Below, in pieces: positions 6,247 to 41,079 of a stretch of DNA of 64,000 nt. Below the pieces are notes generated by a model. That model was not told the origin of the DNA, did no database searches, and saw only the letters and a list, made by a program, of their open reading frames with translations. The stretch is from Escherichia phage AV118. The stretch is taken from sequence record OR352948.1. One strand, 5' to 3'. The first letter of the stretch is position 1, and the number at the start of each line of letters is the position of its first letter. A program made the translations under genes and the position numbers.

Positions 6247-6257
6247 AATTACCCCTA

Positions 6258-6282: not shown

Positions 6283-6287
6283 AATTA

Positions 6288-7223: not shown

Positions 7224-9437
7224 TTATTTGGCCGCTTCCACGGCCTTCATGAATTTAACGATTTGAGCGACCTGTTCTTTGGAAAGAGTACCACGTCGTC
7301 CCATGTAGTCTGACACAATATGATAATTGGTTTCGAATTCAATAACCATTTTATCATCATTATCGTAAGCATTATCTTTAAGCTTATCGAAAATTTTAGC
7401 ACACAATTCTAACTTCTTATTCAGGTCTGTATTAGTAGCACCTGCGAATCGATTCCATCCCCAACGATTATTTACTGTTGAGAGTTTTGCAAAGTCTTTA
7501 CTGATTTCTTTGTTCTTAGAGCTAAAATACTTACTAAGGAAGTTAAGCTCTTCATTACGAGTAATATGATTCAAATAAGGCTGTGCTCTACGACTTGGTG
7601 ATACATACTCATCATAATCCACTTTATCGATTAGCGTAATATAGTCATTAATTGATTTTTCGAACAAGCATTCTACTTCACCAAGTTTACGAACTTTCTT
7701 AGCAATCTGTGGACGAACTACAGTGAACTCTTTAATACCTGACAAATCAGCAATACGGGTCAAGAAATTAGAGTCGTAGTTCAACCAACCTTTATCTGCG
7801 TCAAGACATTCAGCATTAGAACGATTACGAACTATAGCATAACCTTGGATTTCATCTGCTTCACTTGCCGGAATAAAGAGGTCTTCTGATACCCAAACAT
7901 CGTTTTCATTCTTAAAGAATCGATGAGCACTTGGCGATTTAGGACGAGGCTCATTAGTCCGTTTCTTGACTTCAATCCATGGCTTAACGATTTGTAAAAG
8001 CTCTGAAGTCTTGTACATGTTAATGTTGTCGCCATCAAAGATAACTTTAAGGCGTTCCAAAAGTTTCATTGCATCTTCGTCTGTAGGGTCAACGAATAGT
8101 ATGCTTTTACCAAAACCGCGCGGAACTTTACCAGTTAATTTAACATCGTCTTTAGACATTTCAATTGAATTAAGAGCTCGCATTAATGGAACGCGTCCCT
8201 TAACGTCGTCAATAACAATTTCAACATTTTTAATGTTAATGCCAATCAGACTGTTAATTGAAATAGTCGCCGATGAGCTACCACTTTCACGAATACGACG
8301 AAGACGAGGGGATTCAACTATATCGTATACTACGCCAAGATTACACCACTCAGGCCCCATTTTAAAACGTTTGTACAACTCAGAATAAGTTAGTTGTTCT
8401 TTAGAGTATTTCAGTGATTCAATATTAGACCCGGCCTTTTCCATGTATTTACGAGCGGTATAGCCAAGAGAATCAATTTCACGGAACACATGACGTGGGT
8501 ATTTACAATCAATCCATTTCTTAGAATCTTCAGCGAACAATTTAGCATCGATTTCTGCAACGCGTTTATGGATATTTGCTACTGTACGTTTATCAAATGA
8601 CAATGCTTCACGAGACGGGGCTACATCTAGTTCACCCATAGGGAATTTAATATAAGCTGTAGTGCATCGCGTCATCATCCATGTTTGTTCTTTAATAACA
8701 CTTCCGATTGGATATACAATACCACCATAAACAGCCATGATATTACCACGTTCACCCCATGGAGCTTCCTTGGCCAAATATACATCATCAAATTCAGGAA
8801 AGTATTTAATATCTTTAACACCACGAACTTCTGCAATATCACCTAGAGGACGCATAACATATGCAATTTCGGATGCGAACTTTTCAAAATCTTCTGGGTT
8901 AACCGGTACAACTACTTCTACACCCGTACGGTCATCAGGGCCCATCTTATCTACAAAGGTTGGCTTAATTTGTGGACCCGTGTCATCTTGGTAGATTACG
9001 TAACCACGAACTTCACCGTTGTGATAAGACGTAAGGTTAAACGTATCGGTATATGCTAATGGAGCTTTAGAACCGAGTCCGAATCCACCAATGAAATCGT
9101 TACTCGATGTTTTAGTTGAAGCAAAATATGAGTTATAAATTCCTGGCTCTTTGTCATTACCTCGAATGGTGAAATCACTCATACCCGGTCCAAAATCACG
9201 AACTACAAAACGTGGGTCTAAACGACCTGGAGCCTGAACAATAAACTTATCAGTGCAACCATTAAGAATTTGCCCATCAATACAGTTTGTGATTAATTCA
9301 CGTACACAAGCCAATTCTTTGTTTGTATAAAGGTCATTAGACAAAATCTTATAAACTTTGCTATTGCCTTGAATAGTAAATGCTGTGCTCTTACCGCCTG
9401 AACCAATAATCGTTTCTTTAGCCGTTTCGATAATCAT
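7224..9437 (-). CDS. rIIA: rIIA protein with N-terminal GHKL (Bergerat-fold) ATPase domain (737 aa)
   Basis: GHKL N-box ELITNCID and G1 box DFGPGM; size near T4 rIIA (725 aa); synteny 39-rIIA-rIIB. Confidence 0.8.
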   Translation of the reverse strand: MIIETAKETIIGSGGKSTAFTIQGNSKVYKILSNDLYTNKELACVRELITNCIDGQILNGCTDKFIVQAPGRLDPRFVVRDFGPGMSDFTIRGNDKEPGIYNSYFASTKTSSNDFIGGFGLGSKAPLAYTDTFNLTSYHNGEVRGYVIYQDDTGPQIKPTFVDKMGPDDRTGVEVVVPVNPEDFEKFASEIAYVMRPLGDIAEVRGVKDIKYFPEFDDVYLAKEAPWGERGNIMAVYGGIVYPIGSVIKEQTWMMTRCTTAYIKFPMGELDVAPSREALSFDKRTVANIHKRVAEIDAKLFAEDSKKWIDCKYPRHVFREIDSLGYTARKYMEKAGSNIESLKYSKEQLTYSELYKRFKMGPEWCNLGVVYDIVESPRLRRIRESGSSSATISINSLIGINIKNVEIVIDDVKGRVPLMRALNSIEMSKDDVKLTGKVPRGFGKSILFVDPTDEDAMKLLERLKVIFDGDNINMYKTSELLQIVKPWIEVKKRTNEPRPKSPSAHRFFKNENDVWVSEDLFIPASEADEIQGYAIVRNRSNAECLDADKGWLNYDSNFLTRIADLSGIKEFTVVRPQIAKKVRKLGEVECLFEKSINDYITLIDKVDYDEYVSPSRRAQPYLNHITRNEELNFLSKYFSSKNKEISKDFAKLSTVNNRWGWNRFAGATNTDLNKKLELCAKIFDKLKDNAYDNDDKMVIEFETNYHIVSDYMGRRGTLSKEQVAQIVKFMKAVEAAK

Positions 9438-9449
9438 GTTTTTCTCTCA

Positions 9450-9650
9450 TCACAAGTTACGTTTAAAAATTTCTGCCACTTCGAGAAGTTCTTCTTTAGT
9501 AGCTGTGTCGGTTTGTATTTTATATCGAATTTCCTTAAAGCCTTCTTTAAAGGCTTCAGCTGATTCGATATCAAAAAATCTTTGGATAAGCCGGAATTCC
9601 CGGAGCACTGCTTTATCAAAAAGTTCCAAGTCCACGTTATATGTTCTCAT
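9450..9650 (-). CDS. hypothetical protein (66 aa from ATG at 9650)
   Basis: ATG at 9650 with GAAGAG Shine-Dalgarno; the ORF-track start at 9680 lies inside the inverted-repeat arm. Confidence 0.4.
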   Translation of the reverse strand: MRTYNVDLELFDKAVLREFRLIQRFFDIESAEAFKEGFKEIRYKIQTDTATKEELLEVAEIFKRNL

Positions 9651-9742: not shown

Positions 9743-10843
9743 TTACGCTGTGAAGATTTTATCCCACATCGCAACAACTGCATCTCGATTATACTTCTTC
9801 CATACTGCTTCAGCACGTTTAACTCGAGCTTCGTATGTGTCAGTGAATTCTAATACAGCTTTTGTGTAAAGCGCAACTACTTCTTTCTTAGGAGTAGAGG
9901 AATCAATTTCTACACGCACAGTATCTGGGTCGTATTCGAATGTCGCATGAGGATAATCCTTAAAAACTAACTGGATTACAGGGACACCTTTAGAGATGGC
10001 TTCAATAGAACTATTCTCTACCGTACCTGTGTCAGGACACGTATTAATAAGTGCTTTAGCTGTTTTAAGACGTTCCATGATTTCACTGTGTGGAGCATCA
10101 ATAATAACAGGATATTTAGCTGGTGGTGCCCATTTACTAGGACAGTATCCTACACCATTTTCGCCTAGTGCTTTAATCGCTTCAAGAGCAACATCAGTAC
10201 GACGCATTTTAGTGTCATAACGTTGGGCACTAATAATCAAATCAGTTGCTGGGAGAACTTCTGGCTTTTCGGTCAAACAAATAACCGGGTAGTCATCATG
10301 TTCAAATAATGGATTTTCACGCCAGTAATCATAATCAATGCTATCAGTAAGAGCTGAAGTCATATGGCAATATTTACGTTCAAATTCACGGAATGCTTTA
10401 GTAGGAGCATAGCTCTTACCACCGTATTTGTGGGTAAGAATAGTTTGTTTCCAAATTTCTACAATACCGCGAGATACAGGCTCAAATGGAGTTGCCATAA
10501 AATTTCTATGAACACTGGATAAACCGGCATCTTTAATTGCGTTAACAGTTAGTTTAGTCGGTTCCATAGTAACAACAAAATCGTATTCATGGATGCCGGC
10601 TAGTTCAACAATCTTACGAGCCATAGTATAACTCATACCTAGACTGAATTTAGTCAGATGACCAACAGGATGATGATTAACTTTCCAGTCACCAAACGTG
10701 TCATTATCAAAGCCGATATAATCAATATCAGCACCGATGGACACAAGATATTTCAACACATTTAAATGTACTGCTTCAAGGCCACCTTGTACACGGTCAG
10801 GATTAAATGGGACTGCACGAGATGGGATAAACATAACTTTCAT
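9743..10843 (-). CDS. GT-B fold glycosyltransferase (GT4-like, 366 aa); candidate DNA hydroxymethylcytosine glycosyltransferase
   Basis: N-terminal MKVMFIPSRAVPFNP..GGLE and C-terminal ENSSIEAISKGVPVI motifs typical of GT-B/GT4 enzymes; AAGG Shine-Dalgarno; sits between rIIA and 39. Confidence 0.6.
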   Translation of the reverse strand: MKVMFIPSRAVPFNPDRVQGGLEAVHLNVLKYLVSIGADIDYIGFDNDTFGDWKVNHHPVGHLTKFSLGMSYTMARKIVELAGIHEYDFVVTMEPTKLTVNAIKDAGLSSVHRNFMATPFEPVSRGIVEIWKQTILTHKYGGKSYAPTKAFREFERKYCHMTSALTDSIDYDYWRENPLFEHDDYPVICLTEKPEVLPATDLIISAQRYDTKMRRTDVALEAIKALGENGVGYCPSKWAPPAKYPVIIDAPHSEIMERLKTAKALINTCPDTGTVENSSIEAISKGVPVIQLVFKDYPHATFEYDPDTVRVEIDSSTPKKEVVALYTKAVLEFTDTYEARVKRAEAVWKKYNRDAVVAMWDKIFTA

Positions 10844-11684: not shown

Positions 11685-13522
11685 TATCCTAGCATCCAAT
11701 CTTTACGGAGTTCAGGGTCGTTACCCATGAGCATTTCAAATAGTTCTTTCCAATTTTCAGGAAGTTTAACTACGTCGTACACAGGGTTTTGAATCATTTC
11801 TTTATATTCATCCCGCTGAAGTGAGCCCAATCCCTTGATGTATCGAATACTATGCTTAGGCAGTGTATCTTTAACTTCTTCATACTCAGCTACAGTATAA
11901 AACCATTTTTGAGTTTTGCCAATTTGTGCAATAATTACAGGCGTTTTAACAAAGCGAATACGTCCTTGTTCAAACAATTCAGGCCAATTACTAAAGAAAG
12001 CAAGCAAAGCCGGATAAATACTTCCAAGGCCGTCATGATCGGCATCGGTCATAATTGCAATATTACGGTAGTTCGTATTCTCTGCCTTTTCACCAAGAAT
12101 AAGACCCGTGATAGCACAGATATCAAAGAGCTCTTTGTTCTTCATCATATCGACATATGACATACCCCAGCTATTCATCACCTTACCACGTAATGGGAAT
12201 CCGCCGTGTAGTTCACGGTCACGAACATCAATGAGATAACCAATTGCCGAATCACCTTCTGTTAAAAACAATGTCGTATCTGCATCTTTACCACATTGGT
12301 TAGCTTTAATATGCTTATGAACCTTAGCTTTAGTTGCCTTTTTAGCTGCTTTAGTTTCTGCAGCCTTTTCTGCTGCCAATTTACGAGCTAATGCGGCTTC
12401 AATTATAGGCATTAAAACTGCTTCAGAATTCAAAATATTTTTTGCCAATTTTTTTGTATCTAATTTAATATGCGTCCGAATTTCGCCATAAGGACTTGTT
12501 AAACGCTCTTTGGTTTGGGAATCAAAACGAAGGTTCTTCATTCCACGAACGAACATTAAGAGAGTGAGACATTCCTTGATGCGCGCTTTAGTCACGTCGA
12601 TTTTATATTTGCGTTTAATAGCCGGAATTAATTCTTCGCAAATGTCGTCCATCACACATTCAATGTGATGACCACCGTTTTTGGTATGGATGTTATTCAC
12701 ATAAGTTAAATGACGGAAGCCATCTGGTGACCGTCCAATGGCAATAGAGCATCCGTCTTGTTCTTGAATGATGGTCTCTTCATCAAATTGTTTAGCAAAC
12801 TTCTTAAAGTTACCTTGAATCTTTTTGCCATTAAATTTAAATTCAATACCAGGATAAACGACCGCCAATGTTTGGAGCCGGTCTATAGTAATATCTTGGT
12901 ATATTTTTTCAAATTGATTCATTTCAAAATGTGAGAAATCAGGAATAAACTCGACCTTAGTACCGTTGTTTTTAGACGGCTTAGATTTCCAAGAAATATT
13001 ATCAGCGTTATTAGAACAATTAACGGTCAATTCATTTTTACCATCTGAAGTAGTGCCAACAAAAGAGACAGAAAAAATATTTGTTAATGAAGAACCGACA
13101 CCGTTTTGTCCACCCGTAACACGTTCTTTGTCGTCACCAAAGTTGCCACCGGCTTTTGTACGTGTCCACGCCGCAACTGGTCCTGGAATTTCTTCTCCTT
13201 CAGGAGTAATAACTGTTTCTTGAGGAATACCTCGACCATTATCTTCAACAGTCACTTTATTAGAATTTAAATCAATACTAACGGAAATTTTATTAGCATA
13301 TTTGAAATTGGTTCGAATAGCTTCGTCTACTGAGTTGTCAATAATTTCATCAATTAATTTGAGAACACCTGCAACATATTTAACCTTTTTAAATTCACCG
13401 AATAGGAAACGTTCTTGTTCTTCATTGGCAACACTTCCAATATACATGCCAGGACGCTTCAAACAATGCTCTTTATCAGATAGCATTTCAATTTTATTAT
13501 CAATCATTAGATTTTCTCTCAA
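11684..13522 (-). CDS. 39: DNA topoisomerase II large subunit gp39 (GyrB-like ATPase + TOPRIM; contiguous 39+60 equivalent, 612 aa)
   Basis: GHKL ATPase and TOPRIM motifs (PGMYIG, EDNGRGIP, LTEGDSA, DADHDG). Confidence 0.9.
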   Translation of the reverse strand: MRENLMIDNKIEMLSDKEHCLKRPGMYIGSVANEEQERFLFGEFKKVKYVAGVLKLIDEIIDNSVDEAIRTNFKYANKISVSIDLNSNKVTVEDNGRGIPQETVITPEGEEIPGPVAAWTRTKAGGNFGDDKERVTGGQNGVGSSLTNIFSVSFVGTTSDGKNELTVNCSNNADNISWKSKPSKNNGTKVEFIPDFSHFEMNQFEKIYQDITIDRLQTLAVVYPGIEFKFNGKKIQGNFKKFAKQFDEETIIQEQDGCSIAIGRSPDGFRHLTYVNNIHTKNGGHHIECVMDDICEELIPAIKRKYKIDVTKARIKECLTLLMFVRGMKNLRFDSQTKERLTSPYGEIRTHIKLDTKKLAKNILNSEAVLMPIIEAALARKLAAEKAAETKAAKKATKAKVHKHIKANQCGKDADTTLFLTEGDSAIGYLIDVRDRELHGGFPLRGKVMNSWGMSYVDMMKNKELFDICAITGLILGEKAENTNYRNIAIMTDADHDGLGSIYPALLAFFSNWPELFEQGRIRFVKTPVIIAQIGKTQKWFYTVAEYEEVKDTLPKHSIRYIKGLGSLQRDEYKEMIQNPVYDVVKLPENWKELFEMLMGNDPELRKDWMLG

Positions 13523-23386: not shown

Positions 23387-23908
23387 TCAGTAACCATTAT
23401 CCTGACGTTCAAAGTTGTGTTGGTTTTTCAAGTAGTAAAGTTTAAAGATTTCTTCAGCGGAAAGACCCAAACCTTGGAACATATTCAGAACAAAGTGGAG
23501 AATATCAATCATCTCGAATTTAATTTCAAGCTGGTCTTCAGGAGACAGTTCATCGATACGACGATTACGATATTCAGCATGTTGTGCTTTCCATGGCTTC
23601 CACACAGAGCTGGCAGCTTTTTCACCGTTGGACATACCACCGAGTGAAGTCAGCAGTTCACGGAATTCATCATCAATATAATCTTTCTGATTACGCAGCC
23701 AATCAACAACATCACCGGCAGTAGCCAATTCATCAGGATGTTTGTTATGTTCAGGCTTGTCATTTGCCAGACGAACCTGTAAAGATTTCTGCATATCAAG
23801 CATTACCTGCAGTGGGTCTTTATCTTCGTGAATCAGAGCATTAAAATAAGCTTCTTCTGCTTTATCAACACCAGAAATAAGTTGTGAACATTCGTTAAAG
23901 TGTGCCAT
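23387..23908 (-). CDS. 56: dCTP pyrophosphatase gp56 (MazG-like dCTPase/dUTPase, 173 aa from ATG at 23908)
   Basis: MAHFNEC N-terminus and overall pattern of T4 gp56; position between soc and 61. Confidence 0.7.
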   Translation of the reverse strand: MAHFNECSQLISGVDKAEEAYFNALIHEDKDPLQVMLDMQKSLQVRLANDKPEHNKHPDELATAGDVVDWLRNQKDYIDDEFRELLTSLGGMSNGEKAASSVWKPWKAQHAEYRNRRIDELSPEDQLEIKFEMIDILHFVLNMFQGLGLSAEEIFKLYYLKNQHNFERQDNGY

Positions 23909-30171: not shown

Positions 30172-30513
30172 TTAAAAGAATTTAAATTTTTTCTTGGTTC
30201 GTTCATTAAAAGCTTGTTGTACTTGCATTGTAACACATTTTTCAACATGTGGTGCAAGTTCTGCTTTTCTGTCCTGGTCAAGAACTGCAAAGTCCATTAC
30301 GATTTTACCATCAACCCAGTCTAGTTTTGTAATATAGACTATATGATGAGAACCGTCTTCAAGTGTAATCAGAATCTCTTGAATGACATTTTCCATTGCT
30401 GAACGGATAATTTTAAGAGATTCATTAAACACTCGTTCTTTGCGAATGTCTTCCCCTTCCAAAGAAGGGGATTCATCAACGATTTCTAGATTTAAATCAT
30501 CGAGATTATTCAT
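30172..30513 (-). CDS. hypothetical protein (113 aa from ATG at 30513); positional analogue of T4 gp40
   Basis: Between 41 and uvsX as in T4. Confidence 0.4.
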   Translation of the reverse strand: MNNLDDLNLEIVDESPSLEGEDIRKERVFNESLKIIRSAMENVIQEILITLEDGSHHIVYITKLDWVDGKIVMDFAVLDQDRKAELAPHVEKCVTMQVQQAFNERTKKKFKFF

Positions 30514-31678
30514 CGAAATCTTCCATTTCGTCAAGGTCGTTTTCTATATCTGCTGCAGATGGAGCATCAGAAGTTTTAACCGGAACTTTAGTTGTTGCTT
30601 TGCAATTAATAAGGTCATTAACAGCGTCATCAACTTCTTTAATAGAAGAGATAGCACCTAGTTTATATTTAGTTTCAATTGCATCTCGGAAAGGTTTGTG
30701 TTTAAACAAAGGTCCCCAGAATTCTACACAATCAGTAGCTTTAGCACGCCATGATTTCTCTTCACGAATCATTTCACCTGTTTCTTCGTCAAGGAATTCA
30801 CGAGCATACCAACCAGCTTTAGGCTTAACCACAAAACCAATTTCAGTTGCCATTTCTAGCAAGCCGCTGAATGGGTCGATACCACCATCAAAATTAACCG
30901 TGATTGGGAAAGTAGATTTTTCTTTAACGGTGCGAGATTTTTCTGCTTTCAACGTGAAGTCATAACCGGTCAATTCTGTACCTTCTTTAACCTGACGTTT
31001 AGAGATAAAGAATACAGTGTTAGCAGAATAAAGAATACCTGTACCACCACCCATAATCTCTTTAGGATACAATCCGCCGATTTCCATTGCTGTATGGTTG
31101 ATTGCAACACACGGAATATCTTTAATAGTCAGATAAGGAGTCACAATACGGAAAAGAGATTTAAGTGCCTTAGCACGAGACATATCACCTACAACTTTCT
31201 CGTTCAATGCATCTTCAGTTTCTTTCTTAGATGCAGTATTACCGATTGAATCGATAAAGATAATAACTTTATCACCCCGTTCAATCGCGTCAAGCTGATT
31301 AGTCATATCAACTTTAAGTTGTTCGACGGATTGAATCGGAGTATGAACTACACGGTCTAAATCAACACCCATTGAACGAAAATAAGATTCTGAAGCACCA
31401 AATTCTGAATCATAGAACAAACAAATTGCATCTTTATATTTCTTCATATATGCTGCAACCATGGTCAGTCCAAACAACGTTTTAAAGTGTTTAGAAGGAG
31501 CAGCAAAAATAGTCAAGCCTGATTGCAATCCTGCATTCAGAGCACCACCTAGTGCAATATTCAACATTGGAATACGAGTAGGGACTTCATCACGATTATT
31601 AAACAGCTTAGACTTAGTCAAGTCTGCAGTCATTTTAGAAGTAGAAGCTTTAATCAGACGAGATTTTAAATCAGACAT
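30506..31678 (-). CDS. uvsX: UvsX recombinase (RecA/Rad51 family, 390 aa)
   Basis: RecA-fold Walker A region and overall T4 UvsX-like sequence. Confidence 0.9.
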   Translation of the reverse strand: MSDLKSRLIKASTSKMTADLTKSKLFNNRDEVPTRIPMLNIALGGALNAGLQSGLTIFAAPSKHFKTLFGLTMVAAYMKKYKDAICLFYDSEFGASESYFRSMGVDLDRVVHTPIQSVEQLKVDMTNQLDAIERGDKVIIFIDSIGNTASKKETEDALNEKVVGDMSRAKALKSLFRIVTPYLTIKDIPCVAINHTAMEIGGLYPKEIMGGGTGILYSANTVFFISKRQVKEGTELTGYDFTLKAEKSRTVKEKSTFPITVNFDGGIDPFSGLLEMATEIGFVVKPKAGWYAREFLDEETGEMIREEKSWRAKATDCVEFWGPLFKHKPFRDAIETKYKLGAISSIKEVDDAVNDLINCKATTKVPVKTSDAPSAADIENDLDEMEDFDE

Positions 31679-31731
31679 TGTATTTTTCCATAGGCATCAT
31701 TATATTTTACTCATGTTTAAAAGATAAGATG

Positions 31732-31756
31732 ATTATATACTAAGGGTTATACAGCA
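31732..31756 (-). promoter_or_regulatory. Candidate MotA-dependent middle promoter for uvsX (TGCTGTA box, 12 nt, TATAAT)
   Basis: MotA-box-like element with typical spacing to -10. Confidence 0.3.
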
Positions 31757-31776
31757 TTTAAAACTTTAAATGGCTC

Positions 31777-32325
31777 TTAACGAGCCCATTTGATGATTTC
31801 TGTAATCAAATCATTACGTTCGCTTGCATTAAATCCTATAACTTTGTTAGCACCATCATGATTAAGTAATTGATACGTTTGGATTTCGTTATGAATTGCA
31901 AACTCTTCAAAATGTGAAATGACTGTATTAAAACCGAATGAAGACAAAGTAATAAGGTCGTCTTCAAAACTTTCAGTCATTTCGTTACGTGTTAAAATAA
32001 TTGTGAACACATCATGGTTTTGGCAAAGACGAATATAATCCTGTTCATAAACGTCAAGAACCGAGTCCGCATCTTGTCGAATACGTCCGTAAACCCAGTT
32101 ACTAATATATCCACGGTCTAACAGATAAATCTTAGTAGGGTCTAAATAATTCAACATCGTTTCGAAACAGCCAACTTCATTTCGAGACTTAACATCGAAA
32201 CGTCCATCAACTGTTCGTTTAGGGAAATCAATCTTTACATATCTTTCACTAATTTCCATTATGTCATTAATGAAAGTTGTTTTACCAGCATTATCCGGTC
32301 CATCTACTAAAATAATTTTAGCCAT
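31777..32325 (-). CDS. P-loop NTPase, nucleoside/nucleotide-kinase-like (182 aa), in the beta-glucosyltransferase slot
   Basis: Walker A VDGPDNAGKTT near N-terminus; TAATG coupled to upstream 299-aa gene. Confidence 0.5.
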   Translation of the reverse strand: MAKIILVDGPDNAGKTTFINDIMEISERYVKIDFPKRTVDGRFDVKSRNEVGCFETMLNYLDPTKIYLLDRGYISNWVYGRIRQDADSVLDVYEQDYIRLCQNHDVFTIILTRNEMTESFEDDLITLSSFGFNTVISHFEEFAIHNEIQTYQLLNHDGANKVIGFNASERNDLITEIIKWAR

Positions 32326-32326
32326 T

Positions 32327-33226
32327 TTATTCCTCGATTACGACATCTTCATATTTAGGTATATTATATGGTGAAGAAATTAAAGCATTAAAGTAGATGA
32401 ACTCACCAAGACCTGGATGAAATACTTCTTCAGGATTTTCGAAATATTGAATCTTCGGACGTCCTTTAAGAATTTGATAGTACTCGGTTTTAGTTGGTTT
32501 AAAAATTCGAATCAACGCTTCTTCAGGATACTTATTTCTGTCAAAGCTATTATTTGGATCTGTTATATAAAGCGGTTGACCTAATTGAATTGCGCATTCA
32601 ACAACTTGTTCAAAACGATAGCATGGGTCACTAATTCGAAATGGATGAAAAATACCATCTAGATTAATAGGAGCCAAATCACCTACAAGACGCTGCATGA
32701 TGGAAGGACGTATAACTTTCTGCGTTACGATAATCTTATTACCATCTGCACCTGCGTTAACCAGCACTTCTTTTTGACGTTCATTCAACACAGTTGTTTG
32801 GATTGAACGATTAACCGACAATATGTCGGTTTTTAAGAATTCGTCAATATAAAAACGTGGTTTATTAGGGTCTGCGGTGATATTGAAATTGAATTCTACA
32901 TCAAAAGCGCCGTCATATCCAGTGATATCTGTGATTAGAAAATCACAATCATAATAAGCAATTAATGAATCAACCACAAATTCATTTTCAGACCAGAAAT
33001 ATTTACGAGTGTTATACGCGTTATCTTTATACCATAATGGAACAAACTTAAATTCTGGAAAAAGACGTTCGCATTCTTTAATATCAGATGCATTACGTGG
33101 ATATGTAATCACATCACCCGGATTAGCACGGTGCAAATGAAGTTGGAAGTTGCCATCCTTAAGGATAGCATACTGTCCAGTTTCATAAGACCGCATACTC
33201 AAGATAGGTACGCGGAAAATAGCCAT
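32327..33226 (-). CDS. Unknown protein (299 aa) in the beta-glucosyltransferase slot; candidate hmC-modifying transferase
   Basis: Translationally coupled to gene 42 (TAATG); no motif recognised by eye. Confidence 0.4.
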   Translation of the reverse strand: MAIFRVPILSMRSYETGQYAILKDGNFQLHLHRANPGDVITYPRNASDIKECERLFPEFKFVPLWYKDNAYNTRKYFWSENEFVVDSLIAYYDCDFLITDITGYDGAFDVEFNFNITADPNKPRFYIDEFLKTDILSVNRSIQTTVLNERQKEVLVNAGADGNKIIVTQKVIRPSIMQRLVGDLAPINLDGIFHPFRISDPCYRFEQVVECAIQLGQPLYITDPNNSFDRNKYPEEALIRIFKPTKTEYYQILKGRPKIQYFENPEEVFHPGLGEFIYFNALISSPYNIPKYEDVVIEE

Positions 33227-33942
33227 TAGTCAAGGAATCCTTTAACATAATCAAAATCACGTTCAAACACATGGGCACTTACCATGGTATGAGTATAATC
33301 ACCAACTTCTACACCACATTCGTTAGCGATATAATGAAGTAATTTTCCTTGGAGATAAAAATCCAACTGCATAACAACAGCACAGTTCTGAGAACGCATA
33401 TGACAGTGGGTATAAAGCTTACCATCACGAATATAATAAGTCACTGAGTCAGTACATGGATATTCAAGCGTTTCGTCTGAATCAAGCAAAGCCTGATCAG
33501 AACTTTCTAGAATTTGGAACACAACTCTTCGGGAGTTAGGCTTCTCTTTAAGTTCTTTTAGAAGAGCTGGTAATTGAGCCGCAATGCGAGGACCATAGAA
33601 AGTGTTGAAGTTCGCCGGCAAAACATCTGATTTTGGTTTAGAAATAAATTTAGCGACATTAGGATATGCCTTAAACGCTTCTTCTGCATTGGTACCACCA
33701 GAAATCATAAACTTCCAGAAGTCTTCGGCATATTCATAAGAGATGCGGTTAATACGTGGGTCGGTCATTTTGAATGTCGATGGAGTGTCAACAACTACTG
33801 TCATAGACCCAATTTCATTACAACGTCCAATACGAGAATCAGTTACGAATTCCGGGTTTTCTAAAATTTCACGATTGACTGCTTTAAATGCGGCTTGAAA
33901 ATCTGCGGCTTTGATATATTTCATTGTGTTATGTTTTCCCAT
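33226..33942 (-). CDS. 42: dCMP hydroxymethylase gp42 (thymidylate synthase fold, 238 aa)
   Basis: Catalytic Cys in YPCTD; MRSQN...D with Asp at the position that is Asn in thymidylate synthase (cytosine-specific). Confidence 0.8.
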   Translation of the reverse strand: MGKHNTMKYIKAADFQAAFKAVNREILENPEFVTDSRIGRCNEIGSMTVVVDTPSTFKMTDPRINRISYEYAEDFWKFMISGGTNAEEAFKAYPNVAKFISKPKSDVLPANFNTFYGPRIAAQLPALLKELKEKPNSRRVVFQILESSDQALLDSDETLEYPCTDSVTYYIRDGKLYTHCHMRSQNCAVVMQLDFYLQGKLLHYIANECGVEVGDYTHTMVSAHVFERDFDYVKGFLD

Positions 33943-33961
33943 GTTTACCTCAATACAATTT

Positions 33962-33985
33962 ATTATATACTCAATTTGTAAAGCT
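33962..33985 (-). promoter_or_regulatory. Candidate MotA-dependent middle promoter for gene 42 (AGCTTTA box, 11 nt, TATAAT)
   Basis: Box/spacing resembles T4 middle promoters. Confidence 0.3.
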
Positions 33986-34124
33986 TATTTGAATTTCTTG
34001 ACAATGTTGATATAACGTAAAGCTTCAGCATCGATACTTCCAAGAACACTATGAAGAAATGCGTCAGCGTAGTATTCCAATTGAACAGGTTTCTTTAATC
34101 ACTTTAGCCGCTTTAGTTTTAAAC

Positions 34125-34144
34125 AGGCCCATCAGGGCCTTTTT
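34125..34144. terminator. Hairpin aggccc-atca-gggcct followed by T5 on plus strand (terminator-like)
   Basis: Read directly; orientation ambiguous. Confidence 0.3.
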
Positions 34145-34221
34145 AAGAATTTGTTCGTTAGTGTTCAGTTTAATAGTCAAAATCTCTTCGTTAAGTTTAT
34201 AATTAAAAGTTTTTCTAGAAA

Positions 34222-35382
34222 TCATTCCGGGTACCTCAAAGCGTCATCAGAGTTAGTTATATCAATAATAGATATAGAGTTTTCTGCTAACCCGTTTTTA
34301 GATAATTGACGTTTATAATATCTTTCACAATATGTACACGTCGTCCCGCAGATTTCATTAGCACAATCGAAATCTGGATGTCTGAACCACCTTTTTTCTA
34401 AAAAGCCATCTAACAAAGAGGTTTCAATATTTACTGTATGTGAAAACTCAGTTTCGTTTTCAAGAGTGAAAATGGTCTCTAAAGGCTTCCACAGTTCTAA
34501 CAAATTACCTTCAAACTTTTCAGAAGCGTATGCTTCAAGAACTTTCAAAATGTAGTCTGTGCTACCTGTACGTCCTGAAACTTTGAATTGAGTGATACCA
34601 ATATCATTATAAAGTTTCAAATCTTGAGGACGAACAAAACGAGTTCTCAACCAGTTAAATGGGTCTGTATCACGAGCTTTAATACAGTGCTGCATAGGAT
34701 ATCCGTTTAAGGATTTAGCATCATCAGCTGTAACATCAGTACTATGGAAAATATAGCAAGAGTCACGATAGCTACAATGTGTTGTATACCCTTTACCAGC
34801 ATTAGAACAGAACTCATTTACAAGAACTTCAAATATTATATTGTTCTTATTGCAAAACTCTGCTGCACGCTTCAGGAAAGAAACTGAACGGTTCTTATGA
34901 ATTCCACAGCAGACCTTTTTGATATTATATTGGTCATGCAAGTATTTGATTTGAGTTACAGCATCGACATGTAGAATTGTTGAAACTTCAATCTCAATGT
35001 CTTTATTGACTTCACGAACAATTTCCATAACAACAGGGTTAGCGATAGTAATACGCCATACGCCTATTGACCAAAGATACTGAACATAATCCTGAATAGC
35101 TTTCTTCTTCCACTCAACTAGTTCTCTTTTTGAACCAGGATTTATCGTGTTGAGTGTATAGTTAAAGCAAATACCTAATTCGTTACAACGTTTAACGTAA
35201 TCTTCTAACATCTTTTTGTCAACGTCAGGAAGCCTAAAATCAGGTCTGGCTGCTACAAAAGCCATTTCTCTTGTAGAGCCGTATACTTCGTTTATCAAGC
35301 TATTAGGATAAGTTTTATTGAGCTCTACGATTTTATCAAGAAGAGCTAAATCAAAATTCGTTCCAATTTTAAAAGTATTCAT
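34222..35382 (-). CDS. Cys-rich enzyme of unknown function (386 aa from ATG at 35382; ORF track GTG start 35397), possible Fe-S / U32-peptidase-like TIM-barrel protein
   Basis: C-terminal CxxxCxxC (CGTTCTYC) plus further Cys pairs; N-terminal VYGS...ARPDF...ELGI.F.YTLNT pattern reminiscent of U32 family. Confidence 0.45.
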   Translation of the reverse strand: MNTFKIGTNFDLALLDKIVELNKTYPNSLINEVYGSTREMAFVAARPDFRLPDVDKKMLEDYVKRCNELGICFNYTLNTINPGSKRELVEWKKKAIQDYVQYLWSIGVWRITIANPVVMEIVREVNKDIEIEVSTILHVDAVTQIKYLHDQYNIKKVCCGIHKNRSVSFLKRAAEFCNKNNIIFEVLVNEFCSNAGKGYTTHCSYRDSCYIFHSTDVTADDAKSLNGYPMQHCIKARDTDPFNWLRTRFVRPQDLKLYNDIGITQFKVSGRTGSTDYILKVLEAYASEKFEGNLLELWKPLETIFTLENETEFSHTVNIETSLLDGFLEKRWFRHPDFDCANEICGTTCTYCERYYKRQLSKNGLAENSISIIDITNSDDALRYPE

Positions 35383-35438
35383 TTTTTTGCATCTCACGTT
35401 AATTGATGCGATGGTTTTTGCAGGTCTTACTTAAATTA

Positions 35439-35840
35439 TTATAGATTCGGTTTATATGATTTAAATGTTTCGAATTCGCCTTTATTCATAAGAGCTTTGA
35501 ATTCGTCAGGACGCATAGCTTTGTCGTCGATAATCCAATCATATACTGGTTTATGTGTTAGCAAATTATGGTACTTCAAACCAATGTTTTCCAAGTTCTG
35601 AATCAGACTTGGGAGAATGTCAATTGCTATACGTCCAGGACCTACTGACTTCATACCGCGAGCAGTGTAAAGCGTTATGGTATGCCCTGCATCATACAGG
35701 GCATTAATGGCAGACACCATTTCGACGTCTGGTTTGAAGTTCACGTAATCACGATTGTTATTCCACTCTGTTATACAATCATCGACATCAAAACAAAGAT
35801 TAAGCATGTTTTCTACACGGTGCATTAGATTCGTTCCCAT
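35439..35840 (-). CDS. HAD-superfamily phosphatase (133 aa), KdsC-like candidate sugar-phosphate phosphatase
   Basis: HAD motif I FDVDD, motif II TARG, Lys, and DD motif (WIIDD). Confidence 0.55.
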   Translation of the reverse strand: MGTNLMHRVENMLNLCFDVDDCITEWNNNRDYVNFKPDVEMVSAINALYDAGHTITLYTARGMKSVGPGRIAIDILPSLIQNLENIGLKYHNLLTHKPVYDWIIDDKAMRPDEFKALMNKGEFETFKSYKPNL

Positions 35841-37510
35841 TGATGAGTGATATCGCCACCGATTGGACGATAGGAAACACCAGTTTCTTTATCAGTTAGT
35901 ACCCATTTACCAGGATTTTTTGTAATCAGAGTAGCCGTTACAGGTTCTGCTACGTCATAACTAATAGAGCCGTCTTGAAGTACACGGCCCATATTACGTA
36001 ATTGCTTAGTCAGAAGTTCCATACCTTTATAATATGCGGCTACCGCTTTAAGTGGATTATTCTTGAAATAACCACCTAATGCAATCCAGATAATTGCCAC
36101 TGCCAAATGATGATACTCGTTAAACGAACTCATCTTTCCATATTTGTAAACTAATGGATTGATGTTAATAGTCACATTACAAGTTGTTTCATCAATAGTA
36201 AACTGTCCCCAGGTCGGATTAGCATTGAATTCATCATAACCTGAAACAGCATAAAGCACTTTAGCTTCATCATACAATTTTGGCCCGTAAATCTTGGTTT
36301 CGCCAAAATATCCACGAGGGTCGATAAACTTGACTTCGCCGTTATCAGTAATCATAGTATTACTGAAGTTCGGGTCACCATGAATAACAGAGTACTGTCC
36401 CTGAGAACGGTTATGATAACGAATAAGGTGTTCTAAAGCTTGTTTCAGCATTGGCTTCAGACGTCCAATCTTAGTGTAGTTCACATGTGTGATTTTACCA
36501 AATGAATCAATCAATGGTTGAATGCTTTCACAACGATCAATAACTTTCGTATAGAATTCTTTAGTGAAATCACGACGAACAGTTTCAGGACTTACAAAAT
36601 AAGTGTCTGTGCTGAATTTCAGTGCATCTAAAATTGCATCAACAATTTGTGGACGAGCAAGACTTGATTTGGATTTAATATATTCAAATGCCGGCTTACC
36701 TTTAATGCGTTCCATTTCAAAGTTATTTTCATTAACAGAAACTAACTGAGGAACTGAATCTGATTTCACTTTCAAATACCACGAAATCTCATCTTTCTGA
36801 AGAGCTCGACCCTGTTCGGTTAATGCGAATTTAGTTACAGTTTCTTCACCAATTTCAACTGCATTAAAACTACGATTAAGTTCACGAACTTCATGAGCCT
36901 TTTCAAGTTTAGGCATATCACCAAGGTCGATGATATTCATAAGCTCTGATTTATTGAATGCGCCACTGTAAAGGAATTCTACGAAATCACGTCCTTTGCA
37001 GTATTCATGAATTTCCTCATCAGTAGAACCCATATAGAATTCCCAGTCTTTGAACTGATAAATTCCTACAACATTACCACCTGTTGAACCTACGTTAGTG
37101 ATATTTTCACCGTCGAAATTATATCGACATTCGTCACCCTTAACATAGATTGCATTAACATTCCAAGACCATGAACCAAAATCGGGAATAATATCACACC
37201 AGTTAACAATTACGTTATGGCCGTCTAAATCTTTGTGTAATTTAGCAAGAGCATAAGCAGAACCATACGCTTCATCAACTGTACGAATAGTCACATTGAA
37301 CCCTTCTTGCTCACAATAAGCTCGAACAGTTTCAGCAAATTTTGAATGAACTACTACAATAATTTCATCTGCGCCAAGGTCAGAATAAATTGTATACAAA
37401 TTGCTCAGAATAGTGTCTTGTTTATAGTTAACAAGCACCTTAGGAATATGATGCGTTATTGGATACAAACGAGTTGCCAGTCCAGCACCAAGAATAACAG
37501 CTTTTTTCAT
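35825..37510 (-). CDS. Bifunctional sugar-1-kinase (APH/choline-kinase fold) / sugar-1-phosphate nucleotidyltransferase (561 aa)
   Basis: N-terminal nucleotidyltransferase motif AVILGAGLATRL; C-terminal kinase Brenner motif HGDPNFSN and FIDPRG; GAGGA Shine-Dalgarno. Confidence 0.65.
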   Translation of the reverse strand: MKKAVILGAGLATRLYPITHHIPKVLVNYKQDTILSNLYTIYSDLGADEIIVVVHSKFAETVRAYCEQEGFNVTIRTVDEAYGSAYALAKLHKDLDGHNVIVNWCDIIPDFGSWSWNVNAIYVKGDECRYNFDGENITNVGSTGGNVVGIYQFKDWEFYMGSTDEEIHEYCKGRDFVEFLYSGAFNKSELMNIIDLGDMPKLEKAHEVRELNRSFNAVEIGEETVTKFALTEQGRALQKDEISWYLKVKSDSVPQLVSVNENNFEMERIKGKPAFEYIKSKSSLARPQIVDAILDALKFSTDTYFVSPETVRRDFTKEFYTKVIDRCESIQPLIDSFGKITHVNYTKIGRLKPMLKQALEHLIRYHNRSQGQYSVIHGDPNFSNTMITDNGEVKFIDPRGYFGETKIYGPKLYDEAKVLYAVSGYDEFNANPTWGQFTIDETTCNVTININPLVYKYGKMSSFNEYHHLAVAIIWIALGGYFKNNPLKAVAAYYKGMELLTKQLRNMGRVLQDGSISYDVAEPVTATLITKNPGKWVLTDKETGVSYRPIGGDITHQWERI

Positions 37511-37551
37511 GTTGAAGTCCTCATTGGTAAGTAGGAGTATTGTACACTATT

Positions 37552-37695
37552 CTAGTTAAAGCATTCATACTTTGCTTGTAGTCCAATCATAATCCATCCA
37601 ATTACAAGTGTTGGAATCATTACCGGAGCCGTTAAGCTCCAGTAGATAGTCATGACAAGCATCAATAGTAAAAGTCCTATTGTTATTGCTTTCAT
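37552..37695 (-). CDS. Small membrane protein (47 aa), below ORF-track threshold
   Basis: ATG at 37695 overlaps stop of SIS gene (ATGA); translation MKAITIGLLLLMLVMTIYWSLTAPVMIPTLVIGWIMIGLQAKYECFN. Confidence 0.35.
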   Translation of the reverse strand: MKAITIGLLLLMLVMTIYWSLTAPVMIPTLVIGWIMIGLQAKYECFN

Positions 37696-38327
37696 TGTTC
37701 GCCTCGTAACATGGCACCTAGTGCACCGCCTGGATGGAACTTAAGGAAATCATTAGAGGTAAATCCACGTTCAGACGAAAGGTTGATAGCAAACGTATCG
37801 ATAAGCGCTAACAACAATGTAGTGGACATTGTCGGAGCTAAAGAGTTCTCGTCAACTTCTACCGCGATACCAGTACAGAACGTATAATCAAAAAGAGCTT
37901 CGTATTCTTGTGGAATGTCAGGGTTACAATGTAACAGAATCTGTTTAACCTGAGGACGAATCATACGAAGATGTTTAGCAACACCTATCATTTCTTCAGT
38001 CTTACCAGAACGACTGATGTGAACTAATACATCATTAGGTGCAATAAATCCTGCGTCACCATGAGAATAATGCCCAGTGTTCAAGTACATACTTGGGATA
38101 CCGAGTGAAGCAAAAGTCTCGGAAGCTTTAGTTGCGATATTAGCGTTCTTACCAACACCTGTAATAATTACCCGGCTTTCATAATTACTAAGTCCAGGGC
38201 GTCGAAGAGTTTCTAGAATAGCGTTATAACGAGCAGGGTTTTGACTAATTACTTTAGCCATAGTGGCAAGAGATGAAGCTTGTTTTACGATTGCGTCAAT
38301 AGCGATAGTGATTGGTGTAGTTTTCAT
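37692..38327 (-). CDS. SIS-domain sugar-phosphate isomerase, arabinose-5-phosphate isomerase (KdsD/GutQ/KpsF)-like (211 aa)
   Basis: SIS motifs GVGKNANIATKASETFASLGIPS...HGDAGF...HISRSGKTEE closely follow the KdsD pattern. Confidence 0.7.
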   Translation of the reverse strand: MKTTPITIAIDAIVKQASSLATMAKVISQNPARYNAILETLRRPGLSNYESRVIITGVGKNANIATKASETFASLGIPSMYLNTGHYSHGDAGFIAPNDVLVHISRSGKTEEMIGVAKHLRMIRPQVKQILLHCNPDIPQEYEALFDYTFCTGIAVEVDENSLAPTMSTTLLLALIDTFAINLSSERGFTSNDFLKFHPGGALGAMLRGEQ

Positions 38328-38367
38328 ATTTCTCTCATTTAATTAGTTGGCCGTCCTTGGCATTATA

Positions 38368-41079
38368 TCAAAAATCAAACATATCGAACAGAGATGCTTT
38401 CTTCTCGTAATCGAGTTTAGCTGCTGATGTGAATCCTTCAAGTGGTTTAATAAATGTCTTCTCAAGGAGAACAGTGTAGTCCATCCAATGAAGTACATCG
38501 TCTTTAATTAAATCTGTGATTTCAGTACCAGAAGGCCATGCGATACATTTATCACCGAATGGGTTTCCTTCACGTAAAGGCAGAACATATACTTTTTCAC
38601 CTTCTACAACTTGCGGTGCATCGATATTACCTTTGATAGCCCGGTTATACGTCAGAATTCCACGAATATGGAACGGGCATTTAGGACCAGGGAATCCACC
38701 GACATCATATTTAGCAATGTTATTCGCAGAAGATACCGACGCGATGCTAATATAATTCAATTGACGGAATTCTTTTTCAAACTCTTTAAAATATTCTTGT
38801 AATGATTCTTCACCTTCTTGAAGCATACGACGAATACATTCTTTAAGAGCTTTCTGTACTGCTTTAGGGGTCGAAGATTTCTGAGTCTCTAGACCCATGA
38901 TTTTGAGTTTAGGCTCAGCGTAACGAGTGCCTTCCATATCCCACACGTTTAATGCATAACGTTTCTTACCAGTCCAGAATCCACCAATACCTTTAGAACC
39001 GAGCGGAGGACCAGCGATAGCTTCTCGGTCCATGAACATTAAGTGTTGTTTATTGTTCATGTATTCACACATTTCACGGAAACCTCTATCAATAGCTGGT
39101 TCCATACGTTCACGTGCAAACTTATCTAAGAAGTCTACCCAATGGTTGGTATCACGGAATTTAGATTCACCAACCTTATCGATAATTTTATCAGCAGATA
39201 CGTAAATAGAGTCTGTATCACCATAAAGAACGAAAGCTTTACCTTCTGTACCACAAACTTCATTCAGATATTCATTAACTTTACGTTCAATCCACTGTAA
39301 AGCCATTTGCCCGAATGTTGTGATTGCAGTAGCATTACGCAAATCATAATAACGGAACCAAACGTTGCCAAGTGCACCATAAAGTGAGTTGATAAGCAAT
39401 TTACGGTTAATTTGTGCAGTCATACCTGCAACTTCAGTACGTTGAGCTCTAAACAACATTTCATTAAGAGATTTAGCAGACAACTTTTTAATCTTTTCTT
39501 TAATCTCATCACTGAAGTCGAAACGATAATCAACATCTAATGGTTCGTCAATAGAAAGATTAGGATTATGCAATGCCTCTTTAATTATTTCACCATTACG
39601 TTGAGCTGCAAGCATGTAACCTTTATGTTCTTTACGTTGATTAAAGACCTTAGTGATTTCAGTTGGAACTACACCATCACGGTCTTTATAATACATCATG
39701 CCGTTAGGAGAGCAACTGTACACATCTGAAGGACGTTCAGCGATTGCGTTAATATAATCATGCAATGGAGCTACTTTAAACGTTCCTGCTATTGTTTCCG
39801 GGCTAATATTCACTTGGCGAATAATACTTGGATACAGAGATGTAAGGTCGAAACTCATTACATATTTGTATCGATTTGGAATAGGTTCCTTAACAAAAGC
39901 GCCAGGATAAGGTTGAACCGGGTGAGAACGACCTTGTGGAATCACCTTGTTTTGTTCTTTAAGGCTATTAAAAATAATAGCATCCCAAGTTTTAATTGGA
40001 CTGAACACAGATTGAATCTGAATTTTAGCATAATAACCCATGTCCAAGCTCAAGTTGATGAACTGACGCTTAGAATCAATTTGCAATACACGATACACGT
40101 CGATAATGTTATAAGAAATATATCGTTGGTGATTGCTTTCACGAAGCTTAGAAATAGGGCCGTCATATTTCAGTTTACCAACGTTCAATTCAAATTCTGA
40201 AATGTAATCCAGAGAATACGACGGTTGATTGGTAAAAGAGAATTTTTTGTAAAGGTCAATGTAATCAAGAACAGAGATACCGAACAATGTAATGATTTCA
40301 CGAGAACCATACATGTTTTCGATAACTTTAACACGAGTTTTACGATGTGGCGATAAACGTTTCGCAGTAGATTCGCCAAAAATATTCTTGATTCGGTTAT
40401 ACACATATGGAATATCAAATGACTCAACGTTCCATCCGGTTAAAATGACAGGAGTTTTCTGTTGCCAGAAATTGAGATATTCCATCAATAATTCTTTTTC
40501 ATTATCAAACGGCATATAAACAATTTTGTCGATAATTTCGGATGGAACTTCATCACCACCTTGTTCTTGAAGCTTAGCCGCAATTTCGATAGACCATTCT
40601 TCTACATTGCCGTATGGAGAATTCAAAAGGTCAAATACGTAGAACCTGTCGTCAATTGAGTCATAATGGGTGATAGCATCAATCGGATGTTTTGCTTGTG
40701 ACGGCTCAGGGAACCCGTCCGGAGATGTTACTTCGATGTCGAAGTTAGCCACACGAATTTTTGTATGGTCGTATTTGATTTCATAGTTATAAGTGTCAGA
40801 CAAATACGCCAATTTGAAATCGTCCATGCCAAGTGCTTCAAGTCCGATATCTTCCATGCGTTTAATCCATTGGGAGGCATCACGCATATTAGCGAACAAC
40901 TTACGAGTACACGGCTTACCGTAGATATCGAAATATTTCGTAGCCTGACTTTCCGGACAATGAGCAAACAGTGATGGTTTATATTCTACTTCACGAGTAC
41001 GTTCACGGCCATTAGAATCGATGTAACGTTCAAAAATTGAATCACCAATCTGTTCAACCGTTAAGTAAAATTCTTTCAT
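38368..41079 (-). CDS. 43: DNA polymerase gp43 (family B, 903 aa)
   Basis: Exo motifs (FDIE), Pol motifs (DxxSLYPS, YGDTDS); size as T4 gp43. Confidence 0.95.
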   Translation of the reverse strand: MKEFYLTVEQIGDSIFERYIDSNGRERTREVEYKPSLFAHCPESQATKYFDIYGKPCTRKLFANMRDASQWIKRMEDIGLEALGMDDFKLAYLSDTYNYEIKYDHTKIRVANFDIEVTSPDGFPEPSQAKHPIDAITHYDSIDDRFYVFDLLNSPYGNVEEWSIEIAAKLQEQGGDEVPSEIIDKIVYMPFDNEKELLMEYLNFWQQKTPVILTGWNVESFDIPYVYNRIKNIFGESTAKRLSPHRKTRVKVIENMYGSREIITLFGISVLDYIDLYKKFSFTNQPSYSLDYISEFELNVGKLKYDGPISKLRESNHQRYISYNIIDVYRVLQIDSKRQFINLSLDMGYYAKIQIQSVFSPIKTWDAIIFNSLKEQNKVIPQGRSHPVQPYPGAFVKEPIPNRYKYVMSFDLTSLYPSIIRQVNISPETIAGTFKVAPLHDYINAIAERPSDVYSCSPNGMMYYKDRDGVVPTEITKVFNQRKEHKGYMLAAQRNGEIIKEALHNPNLSIDEPLDVDYRFDFSDEIKEKIKKLSAKSLNEMLFRAQRTEVAGMTAQINRKLLINSLYGALGNVWFRYYDLRNATAITTFGQMALQWIERKVNEYLNEVCGTEGKAFVLYGDTDSIYVSADKIIDKVGESKFRDTNHWVDFLDKFARERMEPAIDRGFREMCEYMNNKQHLMFMDREAIAGPPLGSKGIGGFWTGKKRYALNVWDMEGTRYAEPKLKIMGLETQKSSTPKAVQKALKECIRRMLQEGEESLQEYFKEFEKEFRQLNYISIASVSSANNIAKYDVGGFPGPKCPFHIRGILTYNRAIKGNIDAPQVVEGEKVYVLPLREGNPFGDKCIAWPSGTEITDLIKDDVLHWMDYTVLLEKTFIKPLEGFTSAAKLDYEKKASLFDMFDF

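Follow-up and report, generated by a model that had tools for sequence, protein, structure and literature searches.

The gene pair between uvsX and the thymidylate-synthase homologue

The stretch of DNA analysed here, referred to as the window, comprises 64,000 nucleotides of Escherichia phage AV118 (OR352948.1), and the genes in question are two open reading frames (ORFs) at positions 31777–33226 that are predicted to act in the modification of cytosine in the phage DNA. Both lie on the minus strand. The first to be read encodes a protein of 299 amino acids (aa) (32327–33226) and the second a protein of 182 aa (31777–32325), and the pair is bounded by uvsX (30506–31678) and a thymidylate-synthase homologue (33226–33942). 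In the sequence TAATG, the end of the synthase homologue and the start of the 299-aa ORF share part of their stop and start codons, and a single base separates the stop codon of the 299-aa ORF from the start codon of the 182-aa ORF (TAAAATG). An earlier annotation made from the nucleotide letters alone, hereafter the sequence-only reading, had placed two ORFs at these same coordinates and had described the TAATG overlap and the P-loop VDGPDNAGKTT of the shorter protein, all of which were reproduced. It had also likened the interval to the beta-glucosyltransferase position of phage T4, and this positional analogy holds: the T4 order is uvsX - segA - beta-gt - 42, and the same interval there contains segA and beta-gt.

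The 1.6-kb stretch is 95–99.6% identical across 153 phage records, all of the Mosigvirus type, with RB69 at 98.1%, and AV118 is itself a Mosigvirus. At the protein level, homologues down to about 25% identity were found in metagenomic phages, and these retain the invariant residues. Given the 153 near-identical records and the distant homologues, both ORFs are evidently real genes. The base composition of the region is unremarkable, and a scan of positions 31500–38500 for sigma-70 promoters and terminators did not yield sites above the count in shuffled sequence. The 182-aa protein is 99.5% identical over its full length to RB69 p045 (ORF045c/gp45), and the 299-aa protein is 97.8% and 99.1% identical over the full length of RB69 p047 and p046. 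The RB69 record splits this gene into ORF047c and ORF046c through a single additional T close to window position 32683, whereas the ORF is intact in the window and in many relatives. Judged by these matches, the pair corresponds to two genes of the published RB69-type arabinosyl-5-hydroxycytosine pathway, those of its nucleotide kinase and its first DNA sugar-transferase, and the identification is a re-discovery of a system that was already known.

Arabinose was reported in RB69 DNA with ORF003c proposed as the transferase (Thomas et al. 2018, PMC6024577), and the chemistry was later corrected to 5-hydroxycytosine (5hoC) with one or two ether-linked D-arabinofuranoses (Lee et al., NAR 2026, PMC13326640; preprint June 2025). 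In the later work RB69 gp45 and DLP3 gp78 are listed as 'nucleotide kinase', and RB69 gp46:47 and DLP3 gp79 as 'arabinosyltransferase 1' (PMC13326640). Arabinosylated 5hoC is present in the virion DNA of RB69, NicPhage and others (PMC13326640, PMC13390438), and the modification has been confirmed in another Mosigvirus (PMC13390438). It protects the DNA of the phage against restriction enzymes and against some CRISPR systems, and is relevant to phage therapy. The pathway has reportedly also been described for HY126 by He et al. in Nat Chem Biol in 2026 and for Bas46/47 by Mahler et al. in Cell Host Microbe in 2025. From raw sequence, the sequence-only reading had thus picked out the transferase and the kinase of a pathway whose chemistry dates from 2025–2026. 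The value of the present analysis lies in confirmation and in a sharper statement of the points at issue, which are the substrate of the kinase, the acceptor of the first sugar (DNA or nucleotide) and the role of a Peptidase_U32-family protein encoded upstream.

The thymidylate-synthase homologue (33226–33942, minus strand) is a 238-aa protein that matches Pfam Thymidylat_synt and is 98% identical to RB69 p048 (gp48), a flavin-dependent 5-hydroxy-dCMP (5hodCMP) synthase. It is near-identical to the solved chains PDB 9iqc, 9ir2 and 9iqu. Where E. coli ThyA reads QRSCD and T4 gp42 reads MRSND, the homologue reads MRSQN...LD, which in ThyA numbering amounts to D169N plus N177D. D169N is the signature used to recognise 5hodCMP synthases (PMC13326640), and the Asp at the ThyA N177 position marks cytosine specificity. 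RB69 gp48 has been shown by experiment to make 5-hydroxy-dCMP with O2 and flavin (PMC13326640). The sequence-only reading had labelled this gene 42 and assigned it to hydroxymethylcytosine (hmC) synthesis. This label is wrong, as a T4-type dCMP hydroxymethylase is ruled out by the Asn at the ThyA D169 position and by an identity of 25% to T4 gp42. In a tblastn search of phages (E<=1e-8, 401 records), no T4-type phage was among the 40 matches listed, which were sampled across the ranking. The D169N signature therefore indicates 5hoC as the base and arabinofuranose as the sugar.

The occurrence of the gene pair outside Mosigvirus was followed in IMG/VR, which was scanned with an alignment of the 299-aa family (hereafter GT1), and in three metagenome look-ups. 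Together these gave 60 loci, 54 of them informative (flanks on both sides), and the loci are not phylogenetically independent. In 47 of the 54 loci a kinase-family gene lies no more than 3 kb from GT1 on the same strand, and it is directly adjacent to GT1 in 35 (31 directly downstream and 4 directly upstream). The distant kinases are true relatives of the 182-aa protein (hhalign probability above 99%), and in Rhizobium-phage-like loci a more diverged thymidylate-kinase-like gene occupies the same place. A thymidylate-synthase homologue with MRSxN was present in 48 loci and directly adjacent in 43. Arabinose-activation genes (NTK/API) are absent from 20 of the 54 loci, 12 of which nonetheless retain both the synthase and the kinase.

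The predicted 299-aa glycosyltransferase

The product of the 299-aa ORF, RB69 ORF047c and ORF046c as one reading frame, is predicted to be a compact GT-B glycosyltransferase, the 'arabinosyltransferase 1' of the published pathway. It does not match any entry of Pfam or NCBIfam (E<=0.1) or any PDB sequence, membership in Pfam Glycos_transf_1 or Glyco_trans_4 found no support at E<=0.1, and a profile of 57 homologues did not retrieve a glycosyltransferase from the PDB sequences. The earlier remark that the protein has no recognisable motif is thus correct at the level of sequence searches. The AlphaFold2 model built with the 57 homologues has a pLDDT (predicted local distance difference test) of 95.2 and consists of two Rossmann-like domains with an inter-domain cleft, a GT-B fold, and the closest structures are retaining GT4 enzymes. 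Structure prediction had been suggested by the sequence-only reading, along with the idea that this protein may be the transferase, and the confident fold together with the genomic context bears that idea out. Fold, synteny and the published proposal point to a small retaining GT4-type enzyme with a GT-B fold that acts as the first transferase.

Four residues of the C-terminal domain of GT1, R197, K246, H270 and E/D275, show little or no variation in the family, and some of them may correspond to the Arg/Lys and the Glu with which GT4-like enzymes bind the diphosphate and the ribose of the NDP-sugar. A dense set in the N-terminal domain is conserved to the same degree: S10-M-R12, Y19, D24-G-N26, Y66, R74 and Q151. 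Both sets are kept in homologues at about 25% identity. Genomic position is all that the protein has in common with T4 beta-gt (GT63), to which BLASTP gave a best E of 1.6 and no sequence similarity, and it is shorter than T4 beta-gt and alpha-gt (GT72) by about 50–100 residues. The T4 enzymes transfer glucose to the CH2OH group of hmC, whereas the 299-aa protein is predicted to transfer arabinofuranose to the ring 5-OH of 5hoC. The isoelectric points of GT1 (5.1), T4 beta-gt (9.1) and the second glycosyltransferase encoded in the window, GT2 (6.2), do not discriminate between DNA and nucleotide acceptors.

A different function has been assigned to a homologue of GT1 in Shewanella phage Thanatos, TH1_063, in a preparation of which UDP-xylose was detected from UTP and xylose-1-phosphate (PMC12838424). 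By this assignment the 299-aa protein would be a UDP-pentose pyrophosphorylase, which activates the sugar, and not a transferase. We regard this as very improbable. The confident model is that of a GT-B glycosyltransferase and does not have a nucleotidyltransferase fold, the cluster already contains an NTP-transferase domain in a 561-aa protein encoded upstream, and the GT1 family is kept in the 20 loci that lack sugar-activation genes. The Thanatos gene is moreover read as the single arabinosyl-glycosyltransferase of that phage in PMC13326640. Thanatos TH1_060, which holds a real nucleotidyltransferase domain, was inactive in PMC12838424. The pyrophosphorylase assignment of TH1_063 conflicts with the predicted GT-B fold, which suggests that it merits re-examination.

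The probable 182-aa nucleotide kinase

The RB69 ORF045c/gp45 orthologue has a thymidylate-kinase fold, with the P-loop VDGPDNAGKTT at residues 7–17 (Walker A G9-x-D-N-x-G-K15-T-T) and a D-R(Y/H) motif at D70-R71. Searches of Pfam, NCBIfam and PDB sequences with the protein itself gave P-loop or thymidylate-kinase matches below threshold and nothing stronger, and a profile of its family matched PDB sequences of SPbeta prophage YorR (E 4e-5) and thymidylate kinases (E about 1e-4). The sequence-only reading had left room for a canonical dNMP or thymidylate kinase, but the protein scores 15.6 bits against NCBIfam TIGR00041, for which the cut-off is 83.25, and it does not match Pfam PF02223 at E<=0.1. 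One distant member of the family reaches 31 bits against a cut-off of 27. Compared with the thymidylate kinases of vaccinia (A48R, 2v54) and S. tokodaii (2plr) and with YorR (2axp/3kb2), the 182-aa kinase lies below every curated dTMP-kinase threshold, and its family differs from these in being linked to a 5hoC module. In two alignments a nearly invariant Glu50 stands at the position of the Arg with which thymidylate kinases read the O4 of thymine (R76 in the human enzyme). The helix segment bearing the Phe that stacks on the base in thymidylate kinases corresponds in the same alignment-based comparison to a 12-residue deletion. A Glu at this position would suit a substrate with a base of the cytosine type.

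The protein could also be an ordinary dTMP kinase that serves thymidine nucleotide supply and lies beside the modification genes by coincidence. It has the P-loop and the D-R motif, it falls into phrog_761 'thymidylate kinase', and several relatives carry that annotation in RefSeq. This explanation seems improbable in view of the low TIGR00041 score, the empty PF02223 search, and, in the two alignments, the invariant Glu in place of the thymine-reading Arg and the loss of the stacking segment. Phage groups that are not related to each other also share the association of this gene with GT1 and the 5hoC synthase, and T4-like phages have gp1 to phosphorylate dTMP, as in T4. The kind of step that T4 gp1 carries out on hm-dCMP is the one proposed here for the 182-aa kinase.

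A sugar kinase had been another suggestion of the sequence-only reading. It was rejected as unlikely, since the 182-aa family persists in loci without arabinose genes, and the arabinose kinase of the pathway is the 561-aa AfhE-like protein (PMC13326640). In the 12 loci that lack arabinose-activation genes, the synthase, GT1 and kinase persist as a trio, which links the kinase with the hydroxylated base and with GT1, and not with the sugar.

The remaining suggestion was drawn from the 5-hydroxymethyldeoxyuridine DNA kinases (5-HMUDK) of thymidine-hypermodifying phages, with the 182-aa protein phosphorylating a modified base within DNA and thereby activating it for group transfer. A P-loop kinase does adjoin a base-modifying thymidylate-synthase homologue here, and hhalign aligned the protein with phage M6 gp54 (5-HMUDK) at 84% probability, the alignment being limited to the P-loop half. 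The protein does not match PF18748, against which M6 gp54 scores 65 bits, and the D-R-x-x-S-N motif of its family is absent from the 5-HMUDK kinase domain. Since the neighbouring gp48 orthologue is a 5-hydroxy-dCMP synthase, there is no hydroxymethyl group to phosphorylate; a hydroxyl can accept a glycosyl group from a UDP-sugar without being activated by phosphate, and in the mature base an ether bond joins the arabinose to 5hoC (PMC13326640). A DNA-kinase function is on these grounds hardly credible. The neighbours of the kinase are the GT-B transferase and the thymidylate-synthase homologue, and no search was made for the aGPT-Pplase/AADT genes of 5-HMUDK systems. Of the sequence-only reading as a whole, the transferase and a nucleotide-kinase-fold enzyme that travels with the modification module have stood, and the hmC base chemistry and the DNA-kinase analogy have not.

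Proposed order of steps and the remaining genes of the cluster

The interval 31777–33226 is probably the tail of the Mosigvirus arabinosyl-5-hydroxycytosine operon, with GT1 as the first transferase and the 182-aa protein as a kinase of the 5-hydroxy-dCMP type. In the proposed order, the dCTPase and the synthase homologue would provide 5hodCMP from dCMP with flavin and O2, a synthase step demonstrated for the RB69 orthologue (PMC13326640). Kinases would raise 5hodCMP to the triphosphate, the polymerase would incorporate it into DNA, and arabinosylation would follow. UDP-arabinofuranose (UDP-Araf) would be made by an isomerase, the 561-aa kinase/uridylyltransferase and a HAD phosphatase, all encoded just upstream. 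GT1 would then attach the first alpha-arabinofuranose, the one next to the base, to the 5-hydroxyl of cytosine, with acceptor and sugar predicted from the fold, the synteny and the published proposal, and a gp3-type glycosyltransferase encoded far off would add the second sugar. The structure of the final base has been established for orthologous systems. The 182-aa enzyme would be the NMP kinase of the same mobile module, most likely converting 5hodCMP, or a close derivative of it, to the diphosphate. Phages that lack a gp1-type kinase could not do without it, and in T4-like phages its role would overlap, at least in part, with that of the gp1-type enzyme.

Several points weigh against this assignment. 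RB69 gp159, a gp1-type dNMP kinase, already converts 5hodCMP to 5hodCDP (PMC13326640), and a second 5hodCMP kinase looks redundant in this phage. The DLP3 glycosyltransferases, including the gp79 orthologue of GT1, were singly inactive on 5hoC-DNA with UDP-Araf or UDP-arabinopyranose (UDP-Arap) (data not shown in PMC13326640), and the authors cannot tell the mononucleotide from DNA as the site of the first arabinosylation (PMC13326640). To these are added the designation of TH1_063 as a UDP-xylose pyrophosphorylase in vitro (PMC12838424) and the non-independence of the metagenomic loci, despite which the pattern recurs in phages of clearly different kinds.

The same observations can be read as pre-replicative glycosylation, in which GT1 would arabinosylate free 5-hydroxy-dCMP, the 182-aa kinase would be dedicated to a 5-(arabinosyloxy)-dCMP too bulky for the gp1-type enzyme, and the polymerase would use a sugar-bearing dCTP analogue. 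With 5hodCMP covered by the gp1-type kinase (PMC13326640), the 182-aa kinase is left without another unique substrate, and both the inactivity of the GT1 orthologue on 5hoC-DNA in vitro and the choice between mononucleotide and DNA that its authors leave open (PMC13326640) are compatible with such an order. The kinase is also directly adjacent to GT1 in 35 of the 54 loci, and T4-like phages retain it alongside gp1. Against this, DNA is the acceptor in every phage DNA sugar transfer that has been characterised, among them those of the alpha- and beta-glucosyltransferases of T4. In DLP3 the third arabinose is likewise added on DNA, by gp76 and gp77 (PMC13326640). Expression of the synthase and a gp1-type kinase alone leads to incorporation of 5hodC into DNA, so that the unglycosylated triphosphate is a substrate of the polymerase (PMC13326640). 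Negative data in vitro are in addition weak evidence, and phages without a gp1-type kinase need a plain 5hodCMP kinase anyway, which is a simpler account of the linkage. We consider pre-replicative glycosylation unlikely on balance, though worth bearing in mind.

A broader form of the same idea sees in the kinase and GT1 the invariant core of a mobile cassette for 'hydroxypyrimidine glycosylation' that adds its first sugar before polymerisation. This would explain the presence of a second kinase beside the gp1-type enzyme, the frequent adjacency of the kinase to GT1 in overlapping or abutting ORFs, and the inactivity of GT1 on 5hoC-DNA. Its probability is low, at about the level of the preceding proposal, and if true it would be the first phage pathway with a sugar-bearing dNTP as the polymerase substrate. 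The cluster of AV118 shows essentially no difference from the RB69/DLP3 pathway: the order synthase - GT - kinase - uvsX, the upstream UDP-arabinose genes and the distant second glycosyltransferase are all shared. The window has its 299-aa and 561-aa ORFs intact, and the counterpart of RB69 p049 is broken into two frames.

The genes that would supply the activated sugar lie on the minus strand upstream of the synthase homologue. The arabinose-5-phosphate isomerase (RB69 gp55; 37692–38327; 211 aa) matches the NCBIfam KpsF/GutQ/KdsD models and is 97% identical to RB69 p055. The 561-aa protein (RB69 gp52:53; 35825–37510) has an N-terminal sugar-1-phosphate nucleotidyltransferase domain (Pfam NTP_transferase) and a C-terminal kinase domain with weak APH/fructosamine-kinase matches, and its identity is 98% to RB69 p053 and 99.7% to p052. 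Proteins of this type are AfhE-like enzymes of UDP-arabinose synthesis (PMC13326640). The gene is intact in the window and is split as ORF052c/053c in the RB69 record, and the sequences of the intact window ORFs confirm that the RB69 splits (ORF046c/047c and ORF052c/053c) are errors in an old record. The HAD-like phosphatase (RB69 gp51; 35439–35840; 133 aa) belongs to phrog_1238 and is 98% identical to RB69 p051, which is of the type of the AfhF-like arabinose-1,5-bisphosphate 5-phosphatase (PMC13326640). The phosphatase and 561-aa genes overlap by 16 nucleotides in the window (35825–35840) with no insert between them. In phage NRG-P0074 an annotated homing endonuclease gene (L001:10080–10841) lies between the two.

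The gp56-type dCTPase is encoded at 23390–23908 (minus strand; 97% to RB69 p028 by tblastn), and enzymes of this type supply dCMP and remove dCTP (PMC13326640 Table 1). The second arabinosyltransferase, a GT4-like protein of 366 aa (9743–10843, minus strand), is the orthologue of RB69 ORF003c/gp3 with 95% identity to RB69 p003, and it matches PDB 9iqz/9ir0 'phage HY126 glycosyltransferase' (E 3e-242). Its gene is flanked by rIIA and the topoisomerase gene. Gene 39, which encodes the large subunit of the topoisomerase (11693–13507, minus strand), is 78% identical to RB69 at the protein level and 82% at the DNA level, the flanking regions are 92–99% identical to RB69, and gene 39 is thus a mosaic segment.

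The Peptidase_U32-family protein (RB69 gp50; 34222–35397, minus strand; 391 aa) matches PF01136 with 42 bits and is 99% identical to RB69 p050. The phage U32 family has ten invariant Cys residues, including C345-x4-C-x3-C-x2-C357. In PMC13326640 gp50 is listed only as a 'sugar or heterocycle reductase', and the U32 link is not mentioned. Among characterised U32 members, RlhA, which requires both Fe-S clusters and prephenate, is needed for 5-hydroxycytidine at C2501 of 23S rRNA (PMC5727448), and TrhP acts in the prephenate-dependent formation of 5-hydroxyuridine, with the rhodanese TrhO as an O2-dependent alternative (PMC6599085). Five distant loci encode a 46–51% identical U32 protein together with GT1 (L056:8954–10051, L059:5783–6865, L060:11061–12176, L062:11526–12614 and L064:8870–9970), and none has a D169N synthase homologue within flanks of roughly 8 kb. 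The order in three of the five is kinase-GT1-U32, with a clearly related kinase, directly upstream of a DnaE-type polymerase gene. The association of U32 and GT1 in loci that have no D169N synthase nearby suggests that the U32 protein is a candidate alternative hydroxylase of pyrimidine C5, RlhA/TrhP-like and possibly O2-independent. If so, gut phages could profit from such hydroxylation, because O2 is a requirement of the flavin enzyme.

RB69 p049 (79 aa), the product of a small gene that separates the U32 gene from the synthase homologue, matches window positions 33988–34225 (minus strand) as two pieces in different frames. The only open frame in this region is a 53-aa ORF (34064–34225), and the break could stem from a frameshift, from an error in sequencing or from decay of the gene.

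Two of the metagenomic loci contain further genes beside the module. On one metagenomic phage contig, a Flavodoxin_2/FMN-reductase-like gene (L006:4739–5293, plus strand) lies directly upstream of the D169N synthase-GT1-kinase trio, and its product is a candidate flavin-reducing partner of the 5-hydroxy-dCMP synthase. On a Rhizobium-phage-like contig (L066), the module lies between two genes for putative P-loop kinases. One is a P-loop (GxxxSGKT) gene that does not match Pfam (6039–6611, plus strand), some 0.5 kb upstream of the D169N synthase, and the other, directly downstream of the GT1 homologue, is thymidylate-kinase-like (8958–9593, plus strand; PF02223 at 23.6 bits, cut-off 27).

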